From assembly GCF_964213995.1 (NCBI RefSeq), contig NC_135822.1:39246001-39310000 (forward strand): a DNA stretch of 64,000 nt, given 5' to 3'. Shown in pieces: positions 3,367 to 37,147 of the stretch. The stretch comes from Mustelus asterias (lineage: Eukaryota). The notes beneath the pieces are model-generated. The model did not search any database and was not told where the DNA came from. It saw only the letters and a list, made by a program, of their open reading frames with translations. Numbering within the stretch: the first letter of the stretch is position 1; every line of letters begins with the position of its first letter. The translations under genes were made by a program, and so were the position numbers.

Positions 3367-3489
3367 TGTGGAGATGCCGGCGTTGGACTGGGGTAAGCAC
3401 AGGAAGAAGTCTCACAACACCAGGTTAAAGTCCAACTGCTACCAAATAAACCTGTTGGACTTTCACCTGGTGTTGTGAGACTTCTTACA
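3367..3489 (-). mobile_element. Penelope-derived hairpin element, internally deleted (hammerhead region lost)
   Basis: Same termini as the other copies; direct repeat ttgacagactga at 3355-3366 and 3490-3501. Confidence 0.75.
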
Positions 3490-4302
3490 TTGACAGACTG
3501 AGGCAGAGCAGTCAAGACATTGAGCCTGAGATTTTCCCTGTCTGCATGACTCAGCTGTAAAACACGTCCACATAACCAGATGTCCTGAAAAGTGCCACAT
3601 AAATTATTTCTCACATTTAGAAGTCTTTTCCTCCTTGATGGTTGGCAATGGTCTGACTGTATCTACATTGCAAGGCTGAGGGTAACAGCTCCAGAGCAAA
3701 ATTAAATTAAACATAAAAATTAGGGGAAGAGGCTGGAGCATATTAAGCTTGAGACTGTCTGTGTCCAATCCCTGGGTTTATCTGATGCTCGGCAACTTTC
3801 AACTTTGACTTAGTAAACTTGATGTTTCAGCCCTTGGCACGTGCGTCCCCTGGTGGCCAGTAAAATACTGCAGTTTGAACATATCCCTGCACTCATGTGA
3901 AATAACCCATTAACATTTGACTGCCTTTTACAGCTTTAGAAATGTGTTTTATTTTATCAAAGCACTTATAAACTGGCGCTTCAAAGGACTGCATGTTACC
4001 AAATGAGTTTGTTCCAGAGCAGCCATTTGATGCATGTCCATCACTGTTCTCAATAAGTGCAAGTTTGATGGAATAGGAGAGGGTTCTGACTGTTACATGG
4101 GATCTTCGTACAGTACGTTCCAGTCACTGAGCAAGAACACTGTTCCAGTAGTTGTGCTTGAAGTCTCAATGAAAGTTGGAGACAGTTGCTGTCCCAACAA
4201 TAACTTATATTGATGTAAACTTTACCGAAAAAGTTCTAAGTTGCTTCACATGAGCTTTATTGGACAAAACTGAAACCAAGTCACCCCGAAAGAGACATTA
4301 GC

Positions 4303-4627
4303 ATCATAGAATCCTACAGTGCAGAATGAGGCCATTCGGCCCATCAAGTCTGCACCGACCACAATCCCACCCAGGCTCTATCCCCACAGCCCCATGCATT
4401 TACCCTAGTTAGTCCCCCTGACACTAAGGGGCAATTTAGCATGGCCAATCCACCTAACCAGCACGTCTTTCAGACTGTGGGAGGAAATCGGAGCACCCGG
4501 AGGAAACCCACGCAGACACGGGGAGAACGTGCAAACTCCACACAGACAGTGACCCAAGCCGGGAATCGAACCTGGGCCCCTGGCGCTGTGAGGCAGCAGT
4601 GCTAACCACTGTGCCACCGTGCTGCCC
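4303..4627 (-). mobile_element. HE1/V-SINE-type SINE, CR1-type tail
   Basis: tRNA-like head (TGGCACAGTGG A box, GGTTCGATTCC B box), V-domain core, GATTCTAT tail. Confidence 0.9.
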
Positions 4628-5194
4628 CACAGTGAGGTGGCACAGTGGGAAAGGTGATAAATTGAAGTGCGCTGTGTGCGTGCTTTGATGGTAAACATTT
4701 CTGTTTTTGCCATTACTGAGGGAACAACTCGTAAATGAACATGATTGGTTCTCAGATTTGATGGCCTACTGACTCCGATAAAATCTGATTAGGTACTTTG
4801 GAAAGCATCGCAGCAAAATGTGCCTGGGGCCATTATGGTTGCTGTAAGTGCAAACCATTGCTCTGCCGAAAGGCTCAAAACCACAGCAATCCATGCTCAG
4901 AGTTGGGAGGCGTTTACATTTGATGGTGCCGTGATGTCCCTGTGCCAGGGAGCTGCCCTAACCATGAGTTTCGAGTTTATGTCTGCGAATCGTTGTCTGC
5001 TGAGCTACTCACCCTCACTGGGCCTTTCAAGGTTCGGGAAGGAGATTCTGAGCAGAAACGAGATACTTCCCCACAGGTCTTCGAGGTTCCTGGAGGGAAA
5101 TATACCGCCATTTTTCATTGCGGAATAGTGCAGGCAGAGGCAGGAAAACAGACTGTGCTATTCTCTCGACATTAAGTGGCATGTGAGCATAAGA

Positions 5195-5464
5195 AGGTAC
5201 ACAGCACCAGGTTAAAGTCCAACAGGTTTATTTGGCAGCACAAGCCACTAGCTTTCGGAGCGCTGCCCCTTCATCAGGTGAGTGGGATCTCTGCTCAGAA
5301 CAGAACAGCTCTGTTCTGAACAGAACTCCCAGTCACCTGATGAAGGGGCAGCGCTCCGAAAGCTAGTGGCTTGTGCTACCAAATAAACCTGTTGGACTTT
5401 AACCTGGTGTTGTGAGACTTCTTACTGTGTTTACCCCAGTCCAATGCCGGCATCTCCACATCAT
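5195..5464 (+). mobile_element. Penelope-derived hairpin element
   Basis: Inverted arms of about 110 bp around 5307; direct repeat agcataaga at 5186-5194 and 5465-5473. Confidence 0.8.
5332..5370 (+). ncRNA. Putative minimal type I hammerhead ribozyme (mirror copy on - strand at about 5244-5282)
   Basis: gucac-CUGAUGA-a-ggggc(agc)gcucc-GAAA-GCU-A-guggc: helix I, core, helix II, palindromic AGCU in place of helix III. Activity untested. Confidence 0.65.
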
Positions 5465-6020
5465 AGCATAAGATCAAAGACAGCATTTGAAATTGCCCTG
5501 CATGAAACGCCAGTCATAGTTGGCAAGTTTTTGCAAATCCCTTGCATGAAACCGCATGAATCTGTTGCTTTTCTAATCAAGCAAAGGGGAAAAGAAATTG
5601 CCAGTGCTGCTGTGGAAGTCGAGACTTTAGACAAAGCAGGGTTAGAGGTCGGAGATAATTGATGCACAAACGTTACTTCAGTACCTAATGTTTAGCTCTC
5701 TTACTGAAAATGGTAGATTTCCATTATAAATCTCAAAATCCACACTTACAATGCAAACTGTGCATCAACATGTCATGTTGCAGTTACATCTCCTCCTCCA
5801 GTGGAGGCACTGTTTATAGATAATTTTGTACTGTAATTACACTTTCACCCCACTGGAGGCACTGTTCATTGGCAGTTGCCATTATAACTTTGTGGACATA
5901 GGCATTTATAAAAAGTTGACAATTCACAGAAATGGAAGATGCTTCATATGTTATTGGTAGGTACAAATCTACCAACATAATGCTCTGTGTGACGTACATT
6001 ATTTTTTGTTTTTTTTCCAG

Positions 6021-6156
6021 GCCAAGGTTGAAAGGACAGATATCGGGACTCTCATTATCCCTTCAATCACTGTTGCCCAAGCTGGTATCTACCTGTGTGT
6101 GGGAACCAATGCTGCTGGCTCTTCAGAAGGTCGCATTGAAGTCTCGGTATTAGCCT
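6021..6156 (+). CDS. HSPG2: HSPG2 exon, C-terminal half of the Ig domain preceding the repeat block (AKVERTDIGTLIIPSITVAQAGIYLCVGTNAAGSSEGRIEVSVLA)
   Basis: ttttttccag acceptor; T|gtaggt donor; 136 nt, phase 0 to 1. Confidence 0.9.
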
Positions 6157-6913
6157 GTAGGTCTTGGTTTTGCAGAAGGATTAAATTTATTTGTAGTTGT
6201 TTGGTGGTATGGAACTTGAGTATTGCTGAAAGAAACTTTTCACCTTGTACTCATCAGGCACTTCCCAAAAATAACTTCGACATGTCTCTTTTTTCAACAA
6301 TACTCAAATTTATTTGTGCTGATGTTTAATGTTGTCGAACATTCAGTTTGCTCTTACTCTTGTGCCCAGCTATGAGCCTCAGTATGAATTACCCCTCCAG
6401 CCTCAAAGCCTTGACTTCAAAAGAAGCCATTTCAGATTTTTCCTACCTGAGGGAGGTTATTCTATTTCGACTCAGTCACAAGTAGCCTCGCAGGGACCTG
6501 CATCCTGGGCCTCCCAATCAGAGACGATCATGCAAAATCGATGGATCCAGTGAATCTGCCACGAGCCACAAACTGACAGACTGGCCAATTCTGTTCCCTG
6601 TCTGGGTGTATAGCTGAATCCCATTTCAACTGAAGGACAGCCAGAAATGTTTTAAATGCAGATATTGTGACGCAACCTGCATTCAGCCCATTGACTTTAT
6701 CTCAGAATTTTCCACTAGTGGGCTTGAGTCAGGTGTACAGAGTTTATTCCAACAGATGCCTCCGGAGTCAGTCAAGAACAGAGTGACACATGTTCATGTT
6801 TCTTTCCTATCCCCATGCAGTGGATTTTGTACTTATTAAAGAGTAACTTTGCCGAAAGCACAATCACTGCGTAAGGTGAAATAAAGTTGCCTTTTGCAGT
6901 TGTGATAATTTTG

Positions 6914-7128
6914 ATGGGGAGATGCCGGCGATGGACTGGGGTGGGCATAGTAAGAAGTCTCACAACACCAGGTTAAAGTCCAACAGTTTTATTTGGATTC
7001 ACGAGCTTTCGGAACACTGCTCCTTCATCAAGTGAGTCTCACCTGATGAAGGAGCAGTGCTCCGAAAGCTCATGATTCCAAATAAACCTGTTGAACTTTA
7101 ACAGGTGATGTGAGGCTTCTTACTGTGT
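6914..7128 (-). mobile_element. Penelope-derived hairpin element
   Basis: Arms about 6948-7036 and 7038-7125; flanked by taattttg direct repeat. Confidence 0.8.
7039..7075 (+). ncRNA. Putative minimal hammerhead ribozyme with a helix I mismatch
   Basis: ucac-CUGAUGA-a-ggagc(agu)gcucc-GAAA-GCU-C-auga. Confidence 0.5.
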
Positions 7129-16590: not shown

Positions 16591-16872
16591 AGGGTGGCAC
16601 AGTGGTTAGCACTGCTGCCTCACAGCTCCAGGGACCCGGGTTCGATTCCCGGCTGTGCGGAATCTGCACGTTCTCCCCGTGTCTGCGTGAGTTTCTTTCG
16701 GGTGCTCTGGTTTCCTCTCTCAGCCCAAAGATGTGCAGGTTAGGTGGATTGGCCACGCTAAATTCTCCCTCAGTGTACCCGAACAGGTGCCGGAGTGTGG
16801 CGACTAGGGGATTTTCACAGTAACTCCACTGCAGTGTTAATGTAAACCTACTTGTGACACTCATAAATAAAC
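16591..16872 (+). mobile_element. HE1/V-SINE-type SINE, second tail type
   Basis: A/B boxes, V core, ...CTTGTGACACTCATAAATAAA end. Confidence 0.9.
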
Positions 16873-17163
16873 ATAAACAACCCCCCAAAACCAAAGTGTG
16901 GGGTGACATAACTGGAAATCCCATTGACAGCGGCGGGACCGGATAATCCTGCCACTAATGAACAGCACACCAGATTCCACTGCCTGGTCACTCGTGTCTG
17001 GGAGGCTGGAGAATCTCAGCCCATATTGAGATAGCACCTTTCGTAACTTCAGAATGTTCCAAATCAGTTTATAGCCAATCAAATACTTTAGAATGTTGTA
17101 AATACAAAATGTATAAAATGATGTGTTTTGGCACTGTCTCCTTAACTTAAGATAAAACACAGC

Positions 17164-18220
17164 TGTGAAAGGGGGTCAGGTGACTGACTGTATTCTGCCT
17201 GACAACAAACTGAGGGGGCTTGGTTTCTATGGGGATAAGAGGAGCCCAAGTCAAGCGCCTTGCTCTGAAGGTGCAAGATGTTCACACCTGTAGACAATGG
17301 CAAGAGCATCTGGGCTGATTGTGGATTTACTGTTTGTCTCCAAGTCTCATTTAGATGTCAAGATTTATAAACTGTTGTATATTAAGCTATCTGGTAAATT
17401 CACAGGATTGAGTTGGGGGTCTAGAGGATGGCTAATCAGCATTTCTACCTGTATACAAGGCTCGTGTGATTCACATTGCCATGGTACATGGGCTTTTGGG
17501 AAGGGAACAGTCCATAGGAAGCCATTTGTATTATTGGGTTTCGGAGTCTCATGAGATAATACTTCACTTCTGGCCACGGTCACCCCAAGACCGGAGAAAC
17601 CCGCCCGAGGTCAACAGACCTTTGCATGGTCCGTGTCCCACCCGCTACGATTCCCATGGCGGCCAGGACAGGAAAATTCTGTCCATAGAGTCAGTCCTGC
17701 ACCCAAAGCAGAGAAAATGCTGACTAATAGTTACCATGTAGAATGTTGGTGGGAGCACGCACTCTGATTGAAGAAACTGAGTTTGTGAGGATTTGAAGGA
17801 GGCTGTAAGATTTGTCCAGTTCGGGCTAGGGTGGAGGAATCTTCACCGTAACCTTCTTGGTGGAAGTCAGTTCTGGAATTAAAAGTTATATAGCTAAGAA
17901 GGGAGAAGGAAGTTGGTTATTGAGAGACGAGAGCAACTTTGGACTGATTATGGGAGAATAAAGTGTTTACTTAAGGGACAGAGTGAACTGTAACCATATC
18001 AGGGAATTTTTGGTCATTTTAAGGGTTAAATGCGAAAACCTTTCTGTAGTTTAGCATAAAAGTTGTCTACAAAAAATAGTGTTCAGCCAATTTTGCTTTT
18101 TGTTCATTTGTTACAGTAGAACTCTTAAATGGTGAAATCTTATCGTTTGATCTTTTCAGTCAGTCACTGGAATTCAGATATCGTTTTTTAACGTTTTTGG
18201 TCCCTATGGAGACCATAAGA
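17164..18220 (+). mobile_element. Probable solo LTR containing a MITE (about 17565-17686); its 3' part is duplicated at 20806-21170
   Basis: Begins TGTGAA; the duplicate copy ends CCATAACA; no clear TSD. Confidence 0.35.
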
Positions 18221-18267
18221 GATTTAGACACTGTTGTATTGTAGGAGAGGAGAAGGATGAAGAAGAT

Positions 18268-18530
18268 TTTTTTATTCGTTCGTTGGACATGGGCAGACTA
18301 GCATTTATTGCCCATCCCTAGTTGCCCTTGGAGGGCAGTTGAGAGTCAACCACATTGCTGTGGCTCTGGAGTCACATGTAGGCCAGACCGGGTAAGGACG
18401 GCAGATTTCCTTCCCCAAAGGACATTGGTGAACCAGATGAGTTTTTTCTGACAATCAAAAATAGTTTTATGGTCATCAGTAGATTCTTAATTTCAGATAT
18501 TTTTGTATTAAATTCAAATTCCACCCGGAG
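18268..18530 (-). mobile_element. tRNA-headed SINE family (other copies at about 8860-9115, 21228-21490, 47545-47930, 59745-60080)
   Basis: Shared core gagtcacatgtaggccagacc...ttccttccctaaaggacatt; 3' end matches the LINE tail at 29345-29405. Confidence 0.7.
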
Positions 18531-19198
18531 CCCCAGAAATATCATTTAGTTTGGTTTTTCAAGTGAAGAATTTGTTGACTTCTGGGTTTAATCGAAAGCA
18601 GAAAGTTATTAAGTCCAGAAAATGTTCAAAGTATAATGTCTCTGATTGAAACCAGAAACTTGTGTGAATTCAGATGATTTTCACAGACAGTTATTGAAAC
18701 AACCCTGGTATATTTCAGAATTCCCTAAATTCTAGAACATGTATTGGAAGGTAGCAAATATAGCCAAACATGGAGAAAGAGAGAGAGCAGGGAATTATAG
18801 ACCAGTTAGCTTGATATGCTAGGATTTGCCTTTAAGAGCATGGAATAAGGCACTTGGAAAATCATGATTTGATTAGGCAAATGTGGCTTGGTTTTACAAA
18901 AGGGAATTCTGTTTGAGAAATCTGTTTGAGTTTGAATATGTAATTTGTGGCGTAGATAAGAAGGAATAGGTGGTTCTGGCACATTTGGATTTTCAAAAGG
19001 TGGTAACACAAGATGGGATCTCTGGGGTTGGGGTAATATATGAACAAGGGTTGAGGATTGGTTAATGAATAGAAAATCGAGAGTCGGAATAAACTTGATA
19101 TTTTTGAGCTAGCAGAGTGTAACTTGGGGCAATACCAGCGTTTGGCTCTCAACTGTTTACAGTCTAAAGCAATGACTGAATCCTCACTCTCCCCACAG

Positions 19199-19350
19199 TG
19201 CACGAATCTGCCCCAGCAGTGACGGTTCGACCCTCGCCAACCACAGTTAGGGAGGGAGAAATGGTGGAGTTGCACTGCCAGGTCACAGGTCAACCAGAAC
19301 CTAGGATCACATGGTATAGGGCAGCTGGCTCTCTAACAGCCAATCACCAG
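19199..19350 (+). CDS. HSPG2: HSPG2 Ig module 3, N-half exon (HESAPAVTVRPSPTTVREGEMVELHCQVTGQPEPRITWYRAAGSLTANHQ)
   Basis: ccccacag acceptor, CAG|gtaggt donor, 152 nt. Confidence 0.92.
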
Positions 19351-19523
19351 GTAGGTGACATCTTTCCAGTTTGGTTATCCTCCATTTCTTTCAACTTTCT
19401 AACTCTTGGAAGGACTGTTCATGGGGAATAGTTATCTGTCGCTCTGTGTATATTGGTGAGTGCTGAAAGCTGCCTTGGAGAGTGTGGGTAACAGAGGCTG
19501 TGATTTTCCTCTTGATGTTCTAG

Positions 19524-19650
19524 GTGGAGGGCGCTGTGCTACGCATCCTTCGTGTGAGTCCTGCCGATGTCGGGGATTACATCTGCCGCGCAGACAATGT
19601 CTATGGGGTGCAGGAGGTCAAATTCTCCGTCTTGGTCACTCCTTCCACGT
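19524..19650 (+). CDS. HSPG2: HSPG2 Ig module 3, C-half exon (VEGAVLRILRVSPADVGDYICRADNVYGVQEVKFSVLVTPST)
   Basis: gttctag acceptor, T|gtatgt donor, 127 nt. Confidence 0.92.
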
Positions 19651-20519
19651 GTATGTAACCCGTCAGTCTTACCGCATTCATTTGTGGCATCTTAGGTTTT
19701 ATTTGCTTTATCTTTCTGCTCATTTTTCAAAATGCTTGGGTTCCAAAGTATTTCTTTTATTTGAAAAGTGCACGGTGACTGCGGTAGTCTCCAGCTTTGG
19801 GAGAGAAGATTGTGTCGCCTTGTAACTGAGCAAATTCTGTGAGCTGAGGCTATTATTGAAAGGTGGTATTAACTTGCTATTGATAGGAAAAAAAATGTGA
19901 ATGAGGATTGCAAGTTTTACATTCCCAGACCCACTTTAATGAAGAATCGTTGAGTATAATCGTTGTGGGAGGACGAAGGGAATCAGCTGGTTCTCTCTCT
20001 CTAATCTCCCCGGATGTTTTGATTAGGCAACTGAAGTTATGAATGAGAAATATCTAATACAGGGTTTCCCAAATGTTGAGCAGGAGAACCCCTTGTGATC
20101 TCATTGGGCAACCCCAAGCATTCTCATAATGTTGACACCCCTTTTTTGGCCACAGCTTAGGAACGAGCAAAGAATAAAATCTAAACAAATCTTCTAGCTA
20201 TATCTATACATGTATTAGGAATTAGGAAGAGACACACAGTCGCAAATACATGTGCCAGCTACATGGCCCCCTCCCAACCCTTGGCCAAGCCACTCTCCCA
20301 TGGTCCCTTAACATTAACCCCAGGAAGTAGTTCCCACTTTAGGAGTGAGTAATCTGGTAATAATTAAAAAGTTGTATTTAAATATATTTAAATCTTACCC
20401 TATTGTCATTTTTAATTGCATGCTATATGCGAGAAAGATGATTCTCATATTGGAGGCAACCCACACCTTTCCCCCTCACACACAGATGCCCCTCTTTCCC
20501 GCGTGCACTTGACCTTCTC

Positions 20520-20716
20520 TCTCACGCGCACTCGCCCTTCTCGCTGCCGCCCGCATTTGCCCCTCCTGCGCCCGCTCGCCCCTCTCTCCCACCCGCATTC
20601 GCCTCTCCCGCGCCCGCTCGCCCCTCTCTCCTGCCCGCATTCGCCTCTCCTGCGCCCACTCGCCCCTCCCGCCCGCATTCGCCCCTCCCGCGCCCGCTCG
20701 CCCCTCTCTCCCGCGC
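20520..20716. repeat. GC-rich minisatellite, unit about 42 bp, about 4 copies
   Basis: Repeats of cccgcattcgcctctcccgcgcccgctcgcccctctctcc. Confidence 0.85.
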
Positions 20717-22147
20717 GTATTTCATTGGCTATAAACTGATTTGGAACATTCTGAAGTTATGAAAGGTGCTATCTCAATATGGGCTTAGATTCTCCAGCCT
20801 CTCAGCGTAACCTTCTTGTGAAAGTCAGTTCTGGAATTAGAAGTTATCCAGCTGAGAAGGAAAAAGGAAGTTGGTCATAGGGAGAGGAGAGCAACTTTGG
20901 ACTGATTCTGGGAGAATGAAGTATTTACTTAAGGGACAGAGTGAGCTATCATCACATCAGGGAATTTTTGGTCATTTTAAGAGTTAAATGCGAAAACCTT
21001 TCTGTAGTTTAGCGTAAAAGTTGTCAAAAAAAGTGTTCAGCCAGTTTTGCTTTGAGTTTATTTGTTACAGTAGAACTCTTAAATCGTGAAATCTTGTCGT
21101 TTGATCTTTTCAGTCACTGGAGTTCAAATATCTTTATAAAATGTTTTTGTTCCCTATGGAGACCATAACAAGAGATTTAGATACTGTTGTATTGCAGGCG
21201 AGGATAAGGATGTAGAAGATGTTTTTTTAATTCATTCGTTGGACATGGGTGTCGCTGGCTGGCCAGCATTTATTGCCCGTCCGTAGTTGCCCAACGGAAG
21301 TTGAGAGTCTACCACATTGCTGTGGCTCTGGAGTCATACATAGGCCAGACCGGGTAAGAAGGGCACCTTCCCTTCCCTAAAGGACATTAGCGAATCAGAT
21401 GAGTTTTTTCCGACAATCAAAAATGGTTTTATGGTCATCAGTAGATTCTTAATTTCAGACATTTTTGTATTGAATTCAAATTCCACCCGGGGCCCCAGAA
21501 ATATCATTTAGTTTGGTTTTTCAAGTGAAGAATTTGTTGACTTCTGGGTTTAATCGAAAGCAGAAACTTATTAAGTCCAGAAAATGTTCAAAGTATAATG
21601 TCTTTGATTGAAACCAGAAACTTGTGTGAATTCAGATGATTTTCACAGACAGTTATTGAAACAACTCTGGTATATTTCGGAATTCCCTAAATTCTAGAAC
21701 ATGTATTGGAAGGTAGCAAATATAGCCAAACATGGAGAAAGAGAGAGAGCAGGGAATTATAGACCAGTTAGCTTGATATGCTAGGATTTGCCTTTAAGAG
21801 CATGGAATAAAGCACTTGGAAAATCATGATTTGATTAGGCAAATGTGGCTTGGTTTTACAAAAGGGAATTCTGTTTGAGTTTGAATATGTAATTCGTGGC
21901 ATAGATAAGAAGGAACAGGTGGTTCTGGCACATTTGGATTTTCAAAAGGTGGTAACACAAGATGGGATCTATGGGGTTGGGGTAATATATGAACAAGGAT
22001 TGAGGATTGGTTAATGAATAGAAAATCGAGAGTCGGAATAAACTTGATATTTTTGAACTAGCAGAGTGTAACTCGGGGCAAAACCAGCGTTTGGCTCTCA
22101 ACTGTTTACAGTCTAAAGCAATGACTGAATCCTCACTCTCCCCACAG

Positions 22148-22299
22148 TGCACGAATCTGCCCCAGCAGTGACGGTTCGACCCTCGCCAACCACAGTTAGG
22201 GAGGGAGAAATGGTGGAGTTGCACTGCCAGGTCACAGGTCAACCAGAACCTAGGATCACATGGTATAGGGCAGCTGGCTCTCTAACAGCCAATCACCAG
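22148..22299 (+). CDS. HSPG2: HSPG2 Ig module 4, N-half exon (nucleotide-identical to module 3 N-half)
   Basis: ccccacag acceptor, CAG|gtaggt donor, 152 nt. Confidence 0.9.
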
Positions 22300-22490
22300 G
22301 TAGGTGACATCTTCCCAGTTTGGCTATCCTCCATTTCCTTTCTGTTTCTCTTTACCTTCAACTTTTTAACTCTTGGAAGGACTGTTCATGGGGAATAGTT
22401 ATCTGTCGCTCTGTGTATATTGGTGAATGCTGAAAGCTGCCTCGGAGAGTGTGGGTAACAGAGGCTGTGATTTTCCTCTTGATGTTCTAG

Positions 22491-22617
22491 GTGGAGGGCG
22501 CTGTGCTACGCATCCTTCGTGTGAGTCCTGCCGATGTCGGGGATTACATCTGCCGCGCAGACAATCGCTATGGGATGCAGGAGGTCAAATTCTCCGTCTT
22601 GGTCACTCCTTCCACGT
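22491..22617 (+). CDS. HSPG2: HSPG2 Ig module 4, C-half exon (VEGAVLRILRVSPADVGDYICRADNRYGMQEVKFSVLVTPST)
   Basis: gttctag acceptor, T|gtatgt donor, 127 nt. Confidence 0.9.
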
Positions 22618-22954
22618 GTATGTAACCCGTCAGTCTTACCGCATTCATTTGTGGCATCTTTCTTAGGATTTATTTGCTTTATCCTTCTGCTCATTTTTCA
22701 AAATGCTTGGGTTCCAAAGTATTTCTTTTATTTGAAAAGTGCACGGTGACTGCGGTAGTCTCCAGCTTTGGGAGAGAAGATTGTGTCGCCTTATAACTGA
22801 GCAAATTCTGTGAGCTGAGGCTATTATTGAAAGGTGGTATTAACTTGTTATTGATAGGAGAGAAAATGTGAATGAGGATTGCAAGTTTTACATTCCCAGA
22901 CCCACCTTAATGAAGAATCGATGAGTATAATCGTTGTGGGAGGACGAGGGGAAT

Positions 22955-23574
22955 GAAAGAGCAAAGAACATTACAGCACAGGAACTGGTCTTTCGGCCCT
23001 GTGAGCCTGCACCGACCATGCTGCCCGACTGAACTAAAAACCCCTACCCTTCCGGGGACTGTATCCCTCTATTCCATTCCTATTCCTGTACTTGTCAAGA
23101 CGCCCCTTGTCACTTTCGTATCTGCTTCCACCACCTCCCCCGGCAGCGAGTTCCAGGCACCCACCACCCTCTGTGTAAAAAAACTTGCCTCGTACATCTC
23201 CTTTAAATCTTGCCCCTCGCACCTTCAACCTGTGCCTCCTTGTAATTGACTCTTCCAGCCTGGGAAAAAGCTTCTGACTACAGTCTGTCAGATCATCCTC
23301 AACTTGCGTTGTTCCAGTGAGAACAAACCAAGTTTCTCCAACCTCTCCTCATAGCTAATGCCCTCCATACCAGGCAACATCCTGGTAAATCTTCTCCGCA
23401 CCCTCTCCAAAGCCTCCACATCCTTCTGGGAGTGTGGCGACCAGAATTGAACACTATATTCCAAGTGCGGCCTCGTTAACGTTCTATAAAGCTGCAATAT
23501 GACTTGCCAATTCTTAAACTCAATGCCCCAGCCGATGAAGGCAAGCATGCCGTATGCCTTCTTGACTACTTTCT
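22955..23574 (-). mobile_element. CR1 3' fragment present only in duplication unit 2
   Basis: RPHLEYSVQFWSPH peptide; the empty site gaat|cagctgg is at about 19983 in unit 1. Confidence 0.92.
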
Positions 23575-24081
23575 CAGCTGGTTCTCTCTCTCTAATCTCC
23601 CCGGATGTTTTGATTAGGCAACTGAAGTTGTCTATGAGAAATATCTAATACAGGGTTTCCCAAATGTTGAGCAGGAGAACCCCTTGTGATCTCATTGGGC
23701 AACCCCTAGCATTCTCCTCATGTTGACGCCCCTTTTTTGGCCACAAAATAGAAACGAACAAAATATAAAATCTAAACAAATCTTCTAGCTATATCTATAC
23801 ATGTATTAGGAATTAGGAAGAGGCACACAGTCACAAATACATGTGCCAGCTACATGGCCCCCTCCCAACCCTTGGCCAAGCCTCCCTCCCATAGTCCCTT
23901 AACATTAACCCCAGGAAGTAGTTCCCACTTTAGGAGTTGGTAATCTGTTAATAATTCAACAGTTTTATTTAAATATATTTAAATCTTATCCTTTTGTCAT
24001 TTTTAATGGCAAGATTGATGATGGAAAGCTGATTCTCATAATGGAGACACACTCATGCCTTTGCCCCTCCACACACTGACG

Positions 24082-24462
24082 CCCCTCTCCCTCGCACGCT
24101 CCCCTCTCCCTCGCACGCTCCCCTCTCCCTCGCACGCTCCCCTCTCCCTCGCACGCTCCCCTCTCCCTCGCACGCTCCCCTCTCCCTCGCACGCTCCCCT
24201 CTCCCTCGCACGCTCCCCTCTCCCTCGCACGCTCCCCTCTCCCTCGCACGCTCCCCTCTCCCTCGCACGCTCCCCTCTCCCTCGCGCGCTCCCCTCTCCC
24301 GCACGCGCGCCCCTCTCCCTCTCCCGCGCGCACGCCCCTCTCCCGCGCGCACGCCCCTCTCCCTCTCCCGCGCGCACGCCCCCTCCCTCGCGCGCGCCCT
24401 CTCCCTCGCGCGTGCACACGCCCCTCTCCCTCACGTGCGCCCCTCTCCCTCGCGCGCGCACA
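24082..24462. repeat. 19-bp minisatellite (CCCCTCTCCCTCGCACGCT), 10 perfect copies (24082-24271) then degenerate copies
   Basis: Direct reading of the sequence. Confidence 0.95.
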
Positions 24463-24519
24463 CTCATCCCGTCTGTCCTTAAGCAACTCAAATCTCTCCA
24501 AGTGCCTGTTAACTTTTAT

Positions 24520-25360
24520 TCTCTCCGGATCAAATGTGAGTCACTGTTTCCCCTTGAATGAGACTGTCACATTTGCCAATCTCCAATTCTCTGCCACTTC
24601 TCCCAAAACCAGAGAAATTTGGACAATCATTGCAAACCCTTGTGCCATCTCCAATCCCAATTCCCTTAGCAACCTGGCGTATGAGCCATCCTGAGCTGGT
24701 GACTTATCCACTCTAAGCATAGCCAGTATTTCCATTACATTCGGCCTATCAATTTTCAACCTATCCAATACCTCTACCATCGCCACTTCTCCTGATATTT
24801 TATCAGCAAACCTTTCCTGCATTAACACTGATATAATGTACTCAAATTACATCTGTTAGCCTTGTCCTGCACCACTTCACTGCATATGTCCCATCTCTTA
24901 TTCTGGCTTACTATTTAAATGTTGGTAAAAGATTTTTGGATCCACTTTGCTGCCATTCTATTCTGATATTCTTTGTTTTCCAGTCTTGTCTTCCTCATCA
25001 CTCCCCCTCTTGACTTATTATATCTGGTTTGGTTCTTGTTTGATGAATTTAACTGGCATGCAGTGTACACTTGCTTTTTAGTTTCATCATATTTCCTATC
25101 TCCCACCTCACCCAAGGAGCCTTAGCTTTGGCTGCCTTCCCTTTCATCATTGTTGGAATATACCTAGCCTGTAGCTGAAACATCTCCTTAAAGATCACAC
25201 ATTGTTTCATTGTTTCAGTATATCTTTGGCTCTACTTTAGCCTGATTAGATTCCATCCCATCCCATTGAAGTTGACCCTCTTCCAATTTAGAAGGTCTAC
25301 TATAGCTTGTTCCTTTAGCAATCTAAATCATACAATACAGTGACCATTGTTCCCCCAATA
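24520..25360 (-). mobile_element. Old CR1 remnant; its right part is paralogous to about 31020-31280
   Basis: VDKSP..DG, ENWRLANVT peptide remnants. Confidence 0.7.
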
Positions 25361-25515
25361 AGAATGAACCCAAAGTAGGCAATCTACTAAATTGTTACTT
25401 TCTACAGAATTGACAAGATAAGATTCTGTTAATGTGTTACTGCTCAGAGAAGGTTCCAGGATATCAATTTGCTGAAGGTCTTTGCCAGGTTGTGGGCTCA
25501 GAACAAGTAGATCAA

Positions 25516-25787
25516 GTTAGCACTGCTGTCTCACAGCACCAGGGACCCGGGTTCGATTCCTGGCTTGGGTCACTCTCGTGGAGTCTGCATGTTCTCCCGT
25601 GCCTGCGTGTATTTCCTCCGGCTGCTGCAGTTTACTCCCAAAATCCGAAAGACGGACTGGTTAGGTTCATTGGCCATGCTAAATTCTCCCTCCTGAACAG
25701 GCGCCAGAGTGTGGCGACTAGGGAATTTTCACAGTAACTTCACTGCAGTGTTAATGTAAGCCTACCTGTGACACTAATAAATAAACA
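25516..25787 (+). mobile_element. HE1/V-SINE-type SINE, second tail type
   Basis: B box, V core, GTGACACTAATAAATAAAC end. Confidence 0.88.
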
Positions 25788-26339
25788 TCTTCAGTAATGG
25801 ATGTTAGACGAGATGAATAATGTGAAACCTGGTATCTAATGTCTCAAAGCTGTCGCATTGTGAGGGAGCTCATTAACAGTTAGGAGATCCAGTGGATTGG
25901 GAAATAACTGGTGTAGTATAAAGGAAGGGTTAACAGATGAGAGATGCCAATACCTGATGTAGGTGATGATGTCTCACTGACACTAGTTAGTCACGTGGTG
26001 GATTTTCGAGAGAGAGGTTGGTATCATGCCCAGGAACTGTATGCCTACTGTGCAACCTGTTTAGAAGTAGCACTAATAAATAAGTTTTCAGAAGATACCA
26101 AAGTATGTCTGCCATCTGTCTAAGAACCATCCAAGACAGGAGGACCCAATCTGAGAATAACTGCTGTGTTCTCTGTAAAAGTGAATATAACTGCAAAATG
26201 AGTAGTGATGAGGAGAGGATAGAATGAGTTCTCAGTCTTGAAAGAAAATGATTGAGTGTGAGCCTTGTGGCAATGTATATGACACTAAATGCAATAAGAA
26301 GCACTCATGCTGAGCACTCTTTGGTGTAAAAGTTTTTTT

Positions 26340-26641
26340 TTTAAAGTTTATTTATTAGTGTCATAAGTAGGCTTACATTAACACTGCAAAGAAATTACTG
26401 TGAAAATCCCCTAGTCGCCACACTCCGGTGCCTGTTCAGGTACACTGAGGGAGAATTTAGCACAGCCAATGCACCTAACCAGCACGTCTTTGCACAGAGG
26501 GAGGAAACCGGAGCACCCGGAGGAAACCCACGCAGACATGGGGAGAACGTGCAGACTCCACACAGATAGTGACCTAAGAGGGGAATCGAACCCAGCTCCC
26601 TGGCGATGTGAGGCAGCAGTGCTAACCACTGTGCCACCATG
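26340..26641 (-). mobile_element. HE1/V-SINE-type SINE, second tail type
   Basis: Reverse complement of the same consensus. Confidence 0.9.
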
Positions 26642-26964
26642 ACTTCACAGCAAAGGACAAATGAAAGAATTGAAAAGGCAAAGAGGGGTTTGATGTATAA
26701 AAATAAACTGAAACTAAAATGTCAATTTAGCTTTTGTGCTGTACTCGAGTGAAGTTCCTAATCTCAGGTCTGGTTCAGAGGGTAGTCAGATCATTTGCCG
26801 AATGCACAGATGGTCACAGGTGAAAGATCAAGTGAAATATCTGGAAGTTCACACACAGTATTGAAGTGAGTGTCAAAGCAGGAAACAAATCTGGAATTCA
26901 ATAGATGGCAGCGTCTATATTGTGTATTTTTGATCCATTATGCTCATTCTGTCTCTCCCCTCAG

Positions 26965-27116
26965 CACATGGAACTGTCCCAACAGTGAATGTTCACCCCT
27001 CACGCAGCTCAGTTAGGGAGGGAGAAATGCTGGAGTTACACTGCCAGGTCACAGGTCAGCCAGAACCCAGGATCACATGGTATAGGGCAGCTGGCCCTCT
27101 AACAGCCAATCACCAG
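26965..27116 (+). CDS. HSPG2: HSPG2 Ig module 5, N-half exon (HGTVPTVNVHPSRSSVREGEMLELHCQVTGQPEPRITWYRAAGPLTANHQ)
   Basis: cccctcag acceptor, CAG|gtaggt donor, 152 nt. Confidence 0.92.
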
Positions 27117-27308
27117 GTAGGTGACATCTTCCCAATTTGGTTATCCTCCATTTCCTTTCTTGTTTTTCTTTACCTTCAACTTTCTAACTCTTGGAAGGAC
27201 TGTTCATGGAGAATAGTTATCTGTCGCTCTGTATATATTGGTGAATGCTGAAAGCTGCCTCGGAGAGTGTGGGTAACAGAGGCTGTGATTTTCCTTGTGA
27301 TGTTCTAG

Positions 27309-27435
27309 GTGCAGGGCGCTGTGCTACGCATCCTTCGTGTGAGTCCTGCTGACGTTGGGGATTACATCTGCCGTGCAGAAAACGTTGTTGGAACACGGGA
27401 AGTCAAGTTCTCCGTCTCGGTCACTCCTTCTACCA
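27309..27435 (+). CDS. HSPG2: HSPG2 Ig module 5, C-half exon (VQGAVLRILRVSPADVGDYICRAENVVGTREVKFSVSVTPST)
   Basis: gttctag acceptor, A|gtatgt donor, 127 nt. Confidence 0.92.
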
Positions 27436-27782
27436 GTATGTAACCCCGTCAACCTTATGGAATTTAATTGCACTGCATTTACATGTTTTATGACTATCTG
27501 CTTTACCATTCTGCTCATTTTTCTAAATGCTTGCGTTCCAAATTATTTTACTCTTTGAAAAGCGCAGTGTAACTGCAGTGATTTCCAGCTTTGGGAGAGA
27601 AGATCAAGTCGCCTTGTAACCAAGAGCGTTTTGTGAGCTGGGGCTATTATAGAAAGGTGGTGTCAGAATGATAGATAAATTAACCTAATATTAATAGAAG
27701 ACAAAATGTTAATGAACATTGCATCTTTTACGTTTCCAGACCTACTGTAAAGAAGAATTCATGAATAGAATCATACAAAAAC

Positions 27783-28120
27783 CATAGAAATAGAACATAG
27801 AAACCCTACAGTGCAGAAGGAGGCCATTCGGCCCATCGAGTCTCTTCGATAGAGCATCCCACCCAGGCCCTTTCTCCTCTATTTATTTACTCCACTGATT
27901 CCCTAACCCACACAATGTGACACTAAGGGGCAATTTAGCATGGCCAATCCACCTAACTTGCACATCTTTGGACTATGGGAGGAACCGGAGCACCCGGAGG
28001 AAACCCACAGAGACACGGGGAGAACATGCATACTTCACATACAGTTACCCAAGGCCAGAATCGAACCCGGGTTCCTGGCGCTGTCAGGCAGCAGTGCTAA
28101 CAACTGTGCCACCGCGTGCC
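27783..28120 (-). mobile_element. HE1/V-SINE-type SINE, CR1-type tail
   Basis: Head, V core and (TTCTATG) tail. Confidence 0.85.
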
Positions 28121-28459
28121 GTTCATGATACTGCATAGAAGGAGACCATTCGGCCCATCTTGTCCGTGCCGATCCCAAGACACATTGTGGGAAAAAATTT
28201 CTCCCCTAGTGTTTGGAGTAGGTAACTGTAGTTGTGCATGAGAGATATCCAGGGGGTATTGCTTATTTGGGATTCCAAAAGACATTTGATGTGACTCAAA
28301 TCTGTGAGCCTTTAGAGGACAGTTTTCACTCATGGAGATGTTGGCAGATTATCCAGATGGGCTGAGATATGCTTACAATAGGAGACAGTAAATGGATAAA
28401 GCTCCTTCTGATTAGTCGAATGCTGAGGAGGTTTGGGTCTCTCCTTCCCGTCACTCTTA

Positions 28460-29408
28460 ACAATGTTCACAAAGACTTCTCTACCTCAACCTTGGTTCAA
28501 ACGTGGACAGTAGATCTGAATTTCAGAGGTGAGGTGAGAGTGACTGCCCATCATATCAAGGCAGTCTTTGACCGAGTGTGGCATCAAGGAACCCTAGTGA
28601 AACTGGAGTCAATGGGAATCAGGGGGAAAACCCTCTGTTGGTTGGAATCATACTTGGCACAAAGGAAGATGGTTGTGGTGGTTGGAGATCAATCATCTCA
28701 GTCCCAGGACATCACTGCGGGAGTCCGTCAGGCTAGTGTCCTAGGCCCAACCATCTTCAGCTGCTTCATCCATGACTTTCGATCATAAGGTCAGAAGTGG
28801 GGACGTTCACTGATGATTGCACCATGTTCATCTTTTGCAACTCCTCTGATACTGAGGCACCCCATGCTTCAATGCAGCATTACTTGGATAACATCCAGTC
28901 AGGAGTGTGATTGAATAATCTCCACTTGCCTGGATGGGTGCAACCCCAACAACGCTCAAGAAGCTCGACACCAGGACATCCAGGACAAAGCAGCCCGCTT
29001 GATTGCTACCCCTTCCACAAACGTTCACTCCCTCTACCACCGATGCACAGTAACAACAGTGTGCGCTATCTACAAGATACATTGCAAGGGTCCTTAGGCA
29101 GCACCCTGCAAACTCACAACCACTGCCACCTAGAAGGATAAGGGCAGCAGACACATGGGAACACCACCACTTACAAGTTCCCCTCAAAGTCATACAATAT
29201 CCTGATTTGGAAATACATTGGCGTTCCTTCACTGTCGTTGGGTCAAAATCCTGGAACTCCCTCCCTAACAGCACTGTGGTTGTACCTGTATCACATGGAC
29301 TGCAGAGGTTCAAGAAGACAGCTCAGTACCACCTTCTGAAAGGTCGTTAGGGATGGGCAATGAATGCTGGCCTAGCCAGCAACGCCCACCTCCCATGAAT
29401 GAATTCAT
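28460..29408 (+). mobile_element. CR1/L2-group LINE of a second family, decayed 3' part
   Basis: FDRVWHQG, WLESYLAQRKMVVVVG, SVLGPTIFSCFI peptides; (ATGA)n tail. Confidence 0.8.
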
Positions 29409-30433
29409 AAAAGATTTGAATATAAAAAGAGTCTAGCTGCCGAAGGTCCAAGGACAGGATGAGGAAAGGATTTTTTAACACAGTGAGTGGTTAGGATGTG
29501 GAAAGTACTATCTGAGAGTGAGGTGGGGACCAATTCAATCATCACCTTCCAAAGAGAATTGGATAACTATCTGAAGAAAATAAATTTGCAGGGCTGCAGG
29601 GAAAAGACACAGGAGTGGCACAATCTGAGTCACTCTTGCAGAGAGCCAGCACACACACAACAGGCCAAATGGTCGCCTCCTGTGCTGTAAGAATTTTGTG
29701 ATCCTATAACATTCCAGGAAAAGCAACACGTGCAGAAAATGAATGAAGACTCGTGCCGCTAAATGCAAAATATTGTACCTTGGTTAAAACATTTGTATCC
29801 CGAGTGTACAAAATAGAGGTAATGGGGAGATGAAGAGAGTGATGGTATTTGAATCATCAATAACAGTTCTATTTAAAGAAGCAAATGGAATACTGCGATG
29901 TTTAACAGGAAGTGCAGACTGTAACCCTCCAGCAGTCACACATCCAAAGCATGAAACCACTGAGGCAGAAGCTACACTTTGGCTGTCCTGTTATGGCCTT
30001 TTCCCTGCTAAATTTTTTGTAAACTCCTCCAGTTCTGCAACTCTCCCCCACAGAATCCCCATTCCTCTAGCTCGTGCATCCCTCCTCATTTGCATCAGCA
30101 TTAGCTTCAGCCTCGTCTCCTGGAATTCCTAAACCCCGCCATCTCTCCACCTCCAGCACCCTTGCTAAACCCTGGTTACAGTTGTGGAGCTGAGCATAGC
30201 AACAAGAGCATCATGAAAGGAGAACCGAGATCTCTTTAAAAGTGTATTTACAGCTGACAGTCAGTTCTAATGACACAGCAGTTTGAAAACATTCAGTCAT
30301 TGAGTCAGGCTCTCTCTCTCTCTGTCAGGCAATTCATTCAGTTCCTTCCTACACCCTATCCCTGGAGCCCAGTAAACATGGTTCCCTCAAGTCTACATCC
30401 AATTTCTTTTGAAATCATTAATTGTCTCCACTT

Positions 30434-30656
30434 CCTCTCACAGTCCAAAGTTGTGCAGGTTAGATGGATTGGCCATGCTAAATTTCCCCCTAGTGTCCCA
30501 GGATGTGTAGGTTAGGGGGATTGGTAGGGTAAATGCATGGGGTTATGGGGATAGGGTGGGAGGTGGGCCTGAGTAAGATGCTTGGACAGAGAGTCGGTGC
30601 AAACTTGATGGGCTGAATGGCCTCCTCCTGCAGTGTAGGAATTCTTTGATTCTATG
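30434..30656 (+). mobile_element. HE1/V-SINE-type SINE, 5'-truncated, CR1-type tail
   Basis: End of the V core plus tail. Confidence 0.8.
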
Positions 30657-31557
30657 AATATGTCCTGTCACTGTCTAGAACCTTTTCACAAGGATCCCTA
30701 TGTCCCTGCTCACTCTTTTGAAGTATGCCGTTAAGTCTGTATTGTCTTTCTCTGTCCTTTCTGTCAAAATAAATCACCGCACACTTCTCTGCATTAAATT
30801 CTATCTGCTACTTGTCTGGCCATTCTGCTAGCCTATCTATATTCTATTGCAGTCAATGTGTATCATTTTCACTGTTTGCAATGCTTCCACATTTTGTAAC
30901 CTCAGCAAATTTTGAAATGTTATTCTATTCCAATATCTAAGCCATCTATATATTTATATATATATAATATCAGACAACTGACCAATGGAGAACACCACTA
31001 CCCATCTCCATCAACAACACGGAGCCCTGGCTTTGGTTCCCCCTTTCATCCTCGTTAGAATGTACCTAACCTGTAGCTGAAACCTCTCCTCATTAAAGAT
31101 CACCCTCTGTTCCATTGCAGTTTCTCTGTTTATGTCTTTGTCCCCATTTTAACCTGGCTAGGTCCCTTCTCATCTCATTGAAGTTAGTTCGCTTCCACTT
31201 TAGAAGTTCCACATTAAGTTGTGCCTCTCTGTTCTGCTTTATTCATCTAAAACTTACGCTGTGATGATGACTCTTGCCCAGTAAGAATGAATCCAAAGCG
31301 GGTGATCTGTTAAATTGTCACTTGCTGCAAGAATTCACGAGAGAAGATTCTGCTAACATGCTGCTGCTCAGAGAAGGTTCCAGGGTCCGTAGTCTTGATG
31401 TAATTTAGCCGGGGACCGTTGCCAGGTTTTGGGCTCCGAATGAATACACTTCAGGAATGGATGTTGTACAAAAACAATAAGTGAAATCTGGGTCAAAATG
31501 TCCCAAAGTTGTCTCATCATGAGGGAGCCAGTTCAAAGTTAGAAGATCCAATGGATT

Positions 31558-31881
31558 GAATCATAGAATCACAGAATCCCTACAGTGCAGAAGGAGGCCA
31601 TTCGGCCGATCAAGTCTGCACCAACCACAATCCCACCCAGGCCCTATCCCCACAACCCATGCACTTACCCTGGTCAGTCCCCCTGACACTAAGGGGCAAT
31701 TTATCATGTCCAATCCACCTAACCCACACATCTTTGGACTGTGGGAGGAAACTGGAGCACCGGGAGGAAACCCACGCAGACACGGGGAGAACATGCAAAC
31801 TGCACGCAGACAGTAACCCAAGCCAGGAATTGAGCCGGCTCCCTGGCGCTATGAAGCAGCAGTGCTAATCACTGTGCCACC
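31558..31881 (-). mobile_element. HE1/V-SINE-type SINE, CR1-type tail
   Basis: Near full-length match to the other copies. Confidence 0.9.
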
Positions 31882-32765
31882 TGGGGAGATGCTAAATACT
31901 TTCTGGAAAAGTGAATGTGGTAACTACAAGCCCACCAATCATAAGGAAAGGTTTGAATGCGTTCTCAATCCTGAAAGGAAGTGAGTCTTATGCAAAGTGT
32001 ATAATAGCAAGTTCAGTAAGAAATACTAATCTTAAGCACTCTTTGACGTTAAGCCTGACTTCACAGCAAGAATCAAAGGCAAGCGCAGAATATAAGGAAG
32101 CACTTTAACCTGGTGAACTTTCACCTCTTACTCACCCGCCTCAACAGCAAGATGCACCGTAAGCAGCAGAATGAATGCTGGCCCTCCCCCTGCCTATATT
32201 TCAACATCATCTGATCACAAACATCCCTGCCCCCCAACCCTGATGAAGTTAGGTAGCTTACGCACTGCCCCACAAACATAGGACATCCTGATCAGGTCCA
32301 GAATTATGGGTTGAAATGGTTTTAGAAAACAGCAAAATGAATATATTTAAGAAGGCGCGAGGAGTTTGATGGATGAAGATAAAATTTGGATGGTGGCAGT
32401 TGTTTGGAAGGACCATCATTCAATAATGGCAGTGCAGCAATTTACCCAGTCCAGCACTGAAATATCAGCTTAGTTTGTGCTCTGCTCTGGTAAAGTTCCT
32501 AATCTCGGCTCAGGTTCAGAGACTAGGCATATACCAATTGAGCAATGCCAATGCAGTCAGTCAAATTGAATTCTCTTCACACAAAGAGTTCTGTCCAATA
32601 CGTTACGCTAGATGGTAAAGGATGAACAGTCAATTTAAACATTGGCACAAGCTATTAAAGGGAACTTCCAGGCAAGGAACAAACCTGGAGCTCAATAAAT
32701 GACGATGTCGGTATCGTTTGCTTTGTGATCTATTTGCCTCACTCTTGTCTCCACTCTTCCCACAG

Positions 32766-34671: not shown

Positions 34672-34798
34672 GTGCAGGGCGCTGTGCTACGCATCAACCG
34701 CGTGAGCCCTGCCGATGTCGGGGATTATATCTGCCGTGCAGATAATCGCTATGGGATGCAGGAGGTCAAATTCTCCGTTTCAGTCACTCCTTCCGCAT
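34672..34798 (+). CDS. HSPG2: HSPG2 Ig module 6, C-half exon (VQGAVLRINRVSPADVGDYICRADNRYGMQEVKFSVSVTPSA)
   Basis: gttctag acceptor, T|gtatgt donor, 127 nt. Confidence 0.92.
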
Positions 34799-36957: not shown

Positions 36958-37147
36958 ATCATAGAATCATAGAAACCCTACAGTGCAGAAGGAGGCCATT
37001 CGGCCCATCGAGTCTGCACCGACCACAATCCCACCCAGGCCCTACCCCCACATATTTTACCTGCTAATCCCTCGAACCTACGCATCCCAGGACTCTAAGG
37101 GGCAATTTTTAACCTGGCCAATCAACCTAACCCGCACATCTTTGGAC
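36958..37147 (-). mobile_element. HE1/V-SINE-type SINE 3' fragment
   Basis: CR1-type tail. Confidence 0.8.

Follow-up and report, generated by a model that had tools for sequence, protein, structure and literature searches.

How does a gene come by one more copy of a protein domain, and can the route still be read in its DNA? We examined this in Mustelus asterias, where two Ig modules of a single gene lie in a tandem duplication whose seam holds a short inverted sequence. The stretch analyzed, referred to below as the window, comprises 64,000 nucleotides of contig NC_135822.1. A first-pass annotation had attributed the seam to replication template switching of the FoSTeS/MMBIR type at a hard-to-replicate tract, as opposed to unequal crossover between Ig exons. 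Domain IV of perlecan is described in PMC4398486 as having 21 Ig modules in human and about 40 in Trichoplax, and the same source speculates that the ten central human modules were inserted by intronic recombination.

The duplication adds one Ig module to perlecan

The gene is perlecan (HSPG2): all 16 module-exon translations are exact substrings of the Mustelus asterias perlecan record P0253, and 7 anchor exons match named perlecan at 98-100%. Module 3 is encoded on the plus strand by exon a (19199..19350, 152 nt, with AG/GT limits) and exon b (19524..19650, 127 nt), which together make 93 codons and are frame-neutral. Exon a of module 4 (22148..22299, plus strand) is identical to exon a of module 3, while exon b (22491..22617, plus strand) carries 3 substitutions relative to module 3, all of which match module 6. 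As the duplicated unit contains two whole exons, 279 nt in total, perlecan gained one in-frame Ig module.

Relatives were located via a conserved downstream exon and the sturgeon region. Mustelus asterias perlecan has 8 modules in this block and the proteins of Scyliorhinus, Carcharodon, Chiloscyllium and Stegostoma have 7, with the counts for Scyliorhinus, Carcharodon, Heterodontus and Chiloscyllium being lower bounds taken from one isoform each. These 7-module proteins show that an unduplicated state exists, which is what the first-pass annotation had proposed to look for in related species. Modules 3 and 4 are sisters (support 100/96), and a wider group (95/87) takes in Scyliorhinus module 3, which is single. 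Within the interval set by the same pair of anchors, module number runs from 1 to 12 across the 18 named fish records counted, and from 6 to 12 in sharks and rays. At the protein level, the duplication is restricted to one lineage. An exon-a profile search for relatives gave 5 matches among 8000 scored candidates, none of them close; a representative protein search with short exon queries returned 150 generic multi-Ig proteins at 30-46% identity, and a PDB search returned the Ig family only, with contactin-2 at the top.

Two units with diverged edges and a homogenized core

The tandem duplication is about 2.9 kb long. Unit 1 (17847..20716, plus strand, 2870 bp) carries module 3, and unit 2 (20806..24463, plus strand), whose right end is defined only to within an array, carries module 4. 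A C-rich minisatellite (20488..20716) closes unit 1 and a sister minisatellite with a different repeat unit (24082..24463) closes unit 2; the arrays are now 66-72% alike. The units are identical for 231 nt over exon a. The core of the duplication (18464..20111 in unit-1 coordinates, plus strand) has a divergence of 2.3% against 10.9% and 10.8% at the two edges, which are thus equally diverged, and we propose that conversion or repeated unequal exchange later homogenized this 1.65 kb. A literature search on conversion at duplicate edges found no match. Unit 2 alone has a 620-bp dispersed-repeat insertion (22954..23573, minus strand), which we take to be a LINE 3′ fragment. The SINE and LINE copies here presumably belong to families named HE1 and HER1/CR1-like, with MITE-like as a further label, and nothing relevant was found in the literature under these family names.

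The seam holds an inverted copy of nearby DNA

Unit 1 is joined to unit 2 by an 89-bp insert (20717..20805, minus strand) that directly follows the minisatellite. It is the reverse complement of a donor at 16998..17086 (plus strand), with 4/89 mismatches and no gaps (E 2e-34, window self-BLAST). Position 20806 aligns with 17847, and a placement of the join at 20802/17843 is also possible. A 760-bp spacer (17087..17846) separates the donor from the duplicated unit and is single-copy except for one dispersed-repeat piece at 17568-17679. In this one assembled sequence, then, two segments (16998-17086 and 17847-20716) are each present twice with a single-copy stretch between them, and the inverted duplicate of the one is placed between the two direct copies of the other.

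A search at word size 6 found no third copy of the 89-mer in the window. Insert and donor are the sole pair above 90% identity among the window's 7 low-copy inverted pairs, and when inverted matches of at least 93% identity and at least 40 nt are counted there are 6, the other 5 of which lie in multi-copy stretches. The donor is situated within two older repeats and runs on into both. The segment 16914-17015 matches a short element also found at 36936-37227, and 17038-17126 has a weak match to a decayed copy at 60807-60907, the score of which (39) exceeds those of all 500 local shuffles but only narrowly that of the best among 40 whole-window shuffles (38). Because the donor is intact and continuous with both host repeats, and the insert ends inside those repeats, the insert was copied and not moved. 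With polarity taken from single outgroup copies, two of the four differences are donor-derived, one is insert-derived and one is unassignable, and both sequences have mutated since copying. These comparisons support the insert as a locus-specific copy as opposed to a mobile element. The first-pass annotation had described an inverted 89-bp copy, placed exactly between the end of unit 1 and the start of unit 2 and taken from across the boundary of two repeats, and this description is confirmed within the window; the weaker part is the match to the 60.8-kb repeat.

Homology at the joins

At the right join, the donor and the start of unit 1 share only 2 nt (CA, 20803-20804; chance about 0.16), with one adjacent mismatch wherever the join is placed. 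At the left join 1-2 nt are shared, or 4/5 if the repeat phase of unit 1 is projected, a choice made post hoc (background 0.019). The microhomology that is the norm for FoSTeS/MMBIR (2-5 bp, or microhomeology of at least 5 bp) would be blurred here by 4-11% of later divergence. Of the "tca-c microhomology" noted at first pass, an imperfect junction match to unit 1 stands, but the donor and the unit-1 start have just the 2 nt in common. As the right join does no better than chance and the left match was picked post hoc, microhomology does not appear to be established from these alignments.

No long in-register homology was found between the unit limits. One gappy match, 17562-17667 to 24581-24677, has a shuffle fraction of 0.005 and is equaled by 5/395 real windows; as this sole match is weak and out of register with the limits, homology at the outer breakpoints was rejected. 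Modules 3 and 4 share upstream and downstream intron, and the unit limits are intronic, in unrelated sequence. Since the breakpoints are non-homologous, one crossover between Ig exons cannot give the structure, and the first-pass annotation was correct in setting unequal crossover aside as a single cause. Alternative transposition (transposon-end) models, reportedly derived from maize work, were likewise rejected, with no join falling at an element terminus.

The neighboring module 5 provides a contrast. Its older duplicated unit, comprising module 5 and the downstream intron (26946..32750, plus strand), has a limit at the exon-a acceptor, where module 5 switches from module-6-like to module-4-like. 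With limits in homologous exons and a hybrid module, this gain looks like an exon-level crossover.

A predicted G-quadruplex lies next to the seam

A strict G3+N1-7 quadruplex motif is predicted on the minus strand at 20655..20712, 4 nt from the seam, with a G4Hunter score of -2.08. Strict G4 motifs cover 0.6% of the window, and the array of unit 2 meets the relaxed pattern only. The earlier suggestion that a hard-to-replicate tract was the origin of the event gains from this prediction. The array may have been the stall site or the landing site, as the direction of synthesis is not readable from sequence. The weak point of a G4 stall is that it draws on a single case, and the array in question has changed since the event.

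The insert appears younger than the unit edges

Divergence between insert and donor is 4/89 (4.5%) against 10.9% at the unit edges (binomial P about 0.03), and with CpG sites removed the counts are 3/87 and 88/935 (Fisher one-sided 0.037). The 95% interval for insert divergence, 1.2-11.1%, just includes the edge value. When the edges are cut into ten non-overlapping windows of 89 columns, one has no more than 4 differences. The likelihood, uncorrected for rate variation, is 0.10 for a later insert and 0.019 for the same date. Among 25 changes in the left-edge repeat, 15 are unit-2-derived, 6 are unit-1-derived and 4 are ties (p 0.078), with a looser count giving 18:6 and 2 ties; no strand-coordinated spectrum was seen in these left-edge changes. 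Hypermutation at the junction as an explanation for the divergence of the edges is not supported. For the right edge, no outgroup was found in the module 5 intron beyond 50 nt.

Discussion

The structure, the direction of the donor, the non-homologous limits and the reading frame can be read directly from the assembled DNA, and from them we infer a single-event origin and the enzymes that may have been involved. We think it probable that one event with two template switches made both the duplication and the insert. This would have been a single copy-and-paste event in the germline of the smooth-hound lineage, once that lineage had separated from the catsharks. Described for the top strand, a DNA 3′ end would have been elongated across the ancestral module as far as the C-rich array, where a G-quadruplex on the bottom (template) strand may have stopped synthesis, and then have detached. 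The freed end would have primed on an opposite-sense template at 17086 and copied 89 nt backwards. A second detachment would have been followed by renewed synthesis from 17847 (or 17843), giving two copies of the module. A retroelement piece would have entered unit 2 later. Under the MMBIR model set out in PMC2621351, an inverted switch requires another switch after it. The copy gain of the template and the lack of long breakpoint homology agree with the FoSTeS/MMBIR assignment made at first pass, but they are not specific to it, because polymerase-theta end joining is described in PMC8654963 as also giving tandem duplications with templated inserts. Our tentative choice is fork restart of the MMBIR/FoSTeS type, which we rank above an aborted strand invasion finished by polymerase theta because a copied length of 89 nt, from a donor at 760 nt, is on the long side for polymerase theta.

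The polymerase-theta route is a version of the same single-event explanation, and one we consider rather unlikely. It would begin with a two-ended break. After resection, the left end would be elongated along the sister chromatid as far as the G4 array, where it would come free; it would then use its own single-stranded tail as a fold-back template at 17086, and its joining to the right end at 17847 would be the work of polymerase theta. Such a path would explain why the inverted donor lies close outside the start of the unit and why the G4 motif is on the strand it is, and the C. elegans data reported in PMC8654963 and PMC7368036 supply precedents: tandem duplications ranging from about 100 bp to 10 kb, which show microhomology and now and then a templated insert, require POLQ-1, and breaks caused by G4 motifs are repaired by the same route. 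Those data come from repair mutants, however, and polymerase-theta inserts are generally shorter than 25 bp and taken from break-flanking sequence, with longer exceptions (PMC12426944), whereas the insert here is 89 bp and its donor lies 760 bp outside the unit. A different history, which we regard as possible but unlikely, has two steps. A larger homology-based duplication, between the same-strand SINEs at 16605/25516 or between the Ig exons of modules 2 and 5, would have come first, and the original seam would later have been lost to a complex deletion that put the inverted 89-mer in its place, in which case the scar records a deletion and not the gain of a module. The younger appearance of the insert speaks for this order of events, as do the SINE-like copies that flank the whole structure on the same strand, one left of the donor (16605..16874, plus strand) and its potential partner right of unit 2 (25516..25788, plus strand). 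These are 222/259 identical today and each is 7.8-8.5% from the family majority, making them older than the roughly 5.5% per copy accumulated since the duplication, and the switch in module 5 shows that homology-type events occur in this array. Yet two rare events are needed, the second erasing all trace of the first; a remnant of the predicted extra sequence was sought in the window and none was found, and today the SINEs share no identical run longer than 22 nt. Moreover, an insert made from a duplicated donor copy would be as diverged as the edges, so the age gap favors only one sub-case of this history.

Both halves of the donor are repeat-derived and our copy count covers the window only, which leaves some room for the 89-mer being an independent dispersed repeat or transposon-end product that came to the seam by chance. 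We consider this very improbable, as the composite has two copies in 64 kb that are 95.5% alike while other copies of either half reach 73-84% over comparable stretches, and the insert ends inside its host repeats instead of at termini, with no flanking direct repeat or tail at the joins. We give still less credence to an assembly artefact in the form of a chimeric read or false duplication. The 231-nt identity over exon a would suit it, and the matching protein is an annotation that may derive from the same assembly, but copies born of an artefact would be identical, and these are not: 4 sites distinguish the insert from its donor, with mutations in each of the two; the edges show 11% divergence together with indels; a 620-bp insertion is present in unit 2 alone; and the two arrays are unlike.

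The arrangement is like the Dup-invDup "local 2-jump" of PCAWG (PMC7025897) and the germline DUP-NML-INV/DUP class (PMC6902434), as characterized in those reports: there are two inverting junctions on one chromosome and two gains (89 bp and 2.9 kb) around a single-copy stretch, with the donor retained. The PLP1 members of the class in PMC6902434 have megabase spacers where ours is 760 bp, and the oppositely oriented SINE/LINE pair of that class is lacking at the joins here. Unlike somatic or de novo Dup-invDup cases, the event is old and several percent diverged. The PLP1 FoSTeS/MMBIR tandem duplications in PMC6902434 with a flank-templated insert, BAB8949 (861 bp) and BAB8950 (11 bp), are also head-to-tail, with a seam copied from just outside the proximal end and two switches under the model of PMC2621351, but here the outcome is an in-frame domain gain and not a disease allele. 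Unlike in the PLP1 cases, microhomology is at chance level at the right join (2 nt), and the left-edge changes do not show a junction-proximal error cluster (p 0.078). With the polymerase-theta duplications described for C. elegans helq-1 and brc-1 (PMC8654963, PMC7368036), the locus has in common a kilobase unit, a templated insert, 1-2 nt of microhomology and a G4 motif at one end, although the insert is longer and more distant than polymerase-theta inserts usually are. As in the variable domain IV described in PMC4398486, the locus strings together similar Ig modules, each of two exons, in numbers that vary by lineage; unlike the cases given there, a nucleotide-level seam is kept for one gain, and an older gain with exon-level limits adjoins it.

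Scars of this type are familiar from cancer genomes and from human copy-number disease, and the original proposal of MMBIR already saw in it a way for duplications to arise in evolution and for exons to be shuffled (PMC2621351). Ours is a case study and not a new mechanism, presenting a known scar on a protein-lengthening duplication. A narrow literature search, with subscription papers mostly outside it, found no paper on this locus, which is not evidence that it is unpublished. The value of the locus is that a readable old scar is tied to an in-frame domain gain, next to a module made by a different route. We speculate, with considerable doubt, that the seam is a germline record of a predicted G-quadruplex stopping repair synthesis and that the central block grows by two routes, with break-repair template switching seeding units at unrelated intron sites (modules 3/4), homology-driven crossover acting at exon limits (module 5), and conversion erasing the record everywhere except at the unit edges. 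If the G-quadruplex did stop synthesis, a template switch would have added a working domain to an essential basement-membrane protein. If both routes operate, the 6 to 12 modules of sharks and rays would offer a natural series for counting each of them.

Layout of the locus

Eight similar two-exon Ig modules lie between 7.8 and 47.2 kb of the window. A downstream exon matches named vertebrate perlecans at 57–73% identity, and a named Mustelus asterias perlecan (P0253) contains 16 of 16 module exons letter for letter, modules 3 and 4 included. Around these two modules the order is donor (16998–17086), a single-copy spacer of 760 bp, unit 1 (17847–20716, module 3), the inverted donor, termed the insert (20717–20805), and unit 2 (20806–24463, module 4). 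In each unit the module comprises a 152-nt and a 127-nt exon, both bounded by AG/GT, that sum to 93 codons, and the module gain therefore preserves frame. Modules 3 and 4 differ at three sites in exon b, and at each of them module 4 has the module-6 state (NRYGMQ; 22566–22575 and 34747–34756), which may reflect a short stretch of conversion over 12 kb.

Comparing the window with itself, the reverse complement of 16998–17086 equals 20717–20805 with 4 substitutions and no gaps, confirming the insert at the seam as the first-pass annotation described it. Among seven low-copy inverted pairs in the window, this is the only one above 90% identity. Separately, a palindromic short-repeat family occupies 2727–7127 and 38517–39187 and includes an inverted pair (38564–38707 / 39040–39184, 92%), and a 35-nt piece from the 5′ end of a common SINE-like repeat is present six times in tandem (98%) at 39756–39971. 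The insert's 5′ neighbor is the end of a C-rich minisatellite (20488–20716), and its 3′ neighbor is the second copy of the sequence from 17847 onwards. Leftward of the donor, sequence runs on into an element present again at 36936–37227; rightward, a decayed repeat extends past 17086 to about 17126 and is found again as a weak match at 60807–60907, which scored above all 500 local shuffles but exceeded 40 whole-window shuffles by a narrow margin (39 against a maximum of 38). Since the insert begins and ends inside these two host repeats, 16998–17086 is the source, left in place. Using single outgroup copies, two of the four donor/insert differences are donor-derived, one is insert-derived and one is unassignable.

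Unit limits and joins

Units 1 and 2 have intron in common on either side of their exons, and the unit limits fall in unrelated intron sequence, which agrees with the earlier claim that this was not a simple crossover between Ig exons. Near the outer limits there is one gappy, out-of-register similarity, equalled by 5 of 395 random windows. In module 5 the upstream intron resembles that of module 6, the exon and downstream intron resemble those of module 4, and the switch falls at the exon-a acceptor, which limits an older duplication, the source of module 5 (22129–26950 vs 26946–32750), with intron and exon homology of 67–82% throughout. This pattern would be expected of unequal crossover. 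Given the non-homologous limits of modules 3/4 and the module 5 switch at the acceptor, the array appears to show both routes.

The microhomology reported at the right join was the sole misdescribed detail: donor and unit-1 start do share two bases (CA), with one adjacent mismatch however the join is drawn, and by our arithmetic chance alone would give at least two shared bases in about 16% of cases. At the left join, unit 1's last repeat matches a distal unit of unit 2's array with a 1–2 nt overlap; projecting unit 1's own repeat gives 4/5 matches (background 0.019, post hoc). These figures make microhomology at the joins no more than a possibility. A strict G4 motif, predicted on the bottom strand, stops 4 nt short of the seam. 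Such strict motifs make up 0.6% of the window and G4Hunter regions make up 2.6%, and we estimate the chance of G4 overlap with the four break positions at roughly 0.1. Because the two arrays have diverged since duplication, the motif's relevance to the break is only suggestive. These sister minisatellites (20488–20716 and 24082–24463) have turned over to different units, of 42 nt and 19 nt. The array would be a stall site under rightward synthesis and a landing site under leftward synthesis; the sequence is compatible with either.

Divergence of the insert and units

Divergence between the units is 66/605 at the left edge, 37/1635 in the core and 41/379 at the right edge, an unevenness approached by 0 of 30 permutations. 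The core of ~1.65 kb (18464–20111 vs 21426–23702), which includes 231 identical nt ending at 19364, differs by 2.3% between edges diverged by 11%. It was homogenized after duplication, and the overall 92% identity thus understates the duplication's age. A retroelement-like 3′ fragment (22954–23573) is inserted in unit 2 within this core; the window sequence shows no clear target-site duplication there.

Insert divergence (4/89; 95% interval 1.2–11.1%) is below that of the edges (binomial P 0.03; Fisher P 0.037 with CpG sites removed), and 1 of 10 edge windows is equally low. Of all the results, this one chiefly speaks against a single event. Among the changes in the left-edge repeat, 15 are derived in unit 2 and 6 in unit 1, with 4 ties (p 0.078) and no bias by strand; inflation of edge divergence by junction-near errors is unsupported, though conceivable. 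Eight consecutive unit-2-derived substitutions fall within 34 nt of a dispersed repeat (21337–21370), possibly by conversion from another family copy.

Comparison with relatives

We counted modules between the same two anchor exons in 18 records, where single-isoform counts are lower bounds (compare Amblyraja, with 11 and 5 in two isoforms). Mustelus has 8, as do Hemitrygon and Mobula; Scyliorhinus torazame, Carcharodon, Chiloscyllium, Pristis and all five Stegostoma isoforms have 7, Heterodontus and Narcine 6, Rhinoraja 12 and Acipenser 1. The 7-module relatives supply, at the protein level, the unduplicated state that the annotation had suggested seeking. In a tree of 43 modules from six sharks and sturgeon (rays and four extra Stegostoma isoforms excluded), Mustelus modules 3 and 4 are sisters (100/96), joined next by Scyliorhinus 3 (95/87); for Mustelus modules 1, 2, 5, 6, 7 and 8, a single Scyliorhinus module is in each case the best partner (82–95% identity). 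As both genera are Carcharhiniformes, the duplication postdates their divergence. The one Heterodontus isoform counted falls a module short of the four galeoid sharks, a difference that may date the module-5 duplication.

Perlecan domain IV is variable in Ig number, according to PMC4398486. Within Chiloscyllium and within Stegostoma (P0268, P0265), modules 3 and 4 are nearly or fully identical, pointing to possible concerted evolution or recent replacement. Skates and rays have 6–12 modules here, with near-identical long runs in skates, and sturgeon and paddlefish have 1 (P0244, P0246, P0251, P0252, P0257, P0284). In sturgeon fragment P0036 the downstream Ig block is repeated instead, with the same conserved words at about residues 626 and 916.

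Origin of the seam

We think it probable that one copying event with two template switches made the seam. The annotation's specific claims of FoSTeS/MMBIR, of stalling at the tract, and of the same event for insert and duplication would each be plausible; we assign the single event to MMBIR/FoSTeS tentatively, at somewhat under even odds. It is unlikely that the event was instead an aborted strand invasion completed by polymerase theta. PMC8654963 and PMC7368036 describe POLQ-dependent tandem duplications and templated inserts, the former also covering G4-induced breaks, and PMC12426944 gives polymerase theta inserts as usually <25 bp.

Because two SINEs on the same strand, which predate the duplication, lie on either side of the entire structure, a two-step history must also be weighed, in which a larger homology-made duplication was followed by a complex deletion that left the insert; the insert being less diverged than the unit edges favors it too, and we regard it as rather unlikely overall. 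A sensitive search within the window found no third copy of the insert/donor sequence, and it is very improbable that the insert is an independent repeat. Ageing is evident in both donor and insert, which argues against an assembly chimera, and an artefact is hardly credible.

The structure has precedents in the literature: PMC7025897 treats 531 instances of the structural class to which the Mustelus seam belongs; PMC6902434 reports PLP1 duplications with templated inserts of 861 bp and 11 bp, as well as DUP-NML-INV/DUP cases; and PMC2621351 sets out the two-inversion logic and proposes exon shuffling. The Mustelus seam is a new instance of an already known rearrangement class, and its added usefulness lies in an in-frame domain gain with outgroups at hand, next to a module that looks crossover-made.
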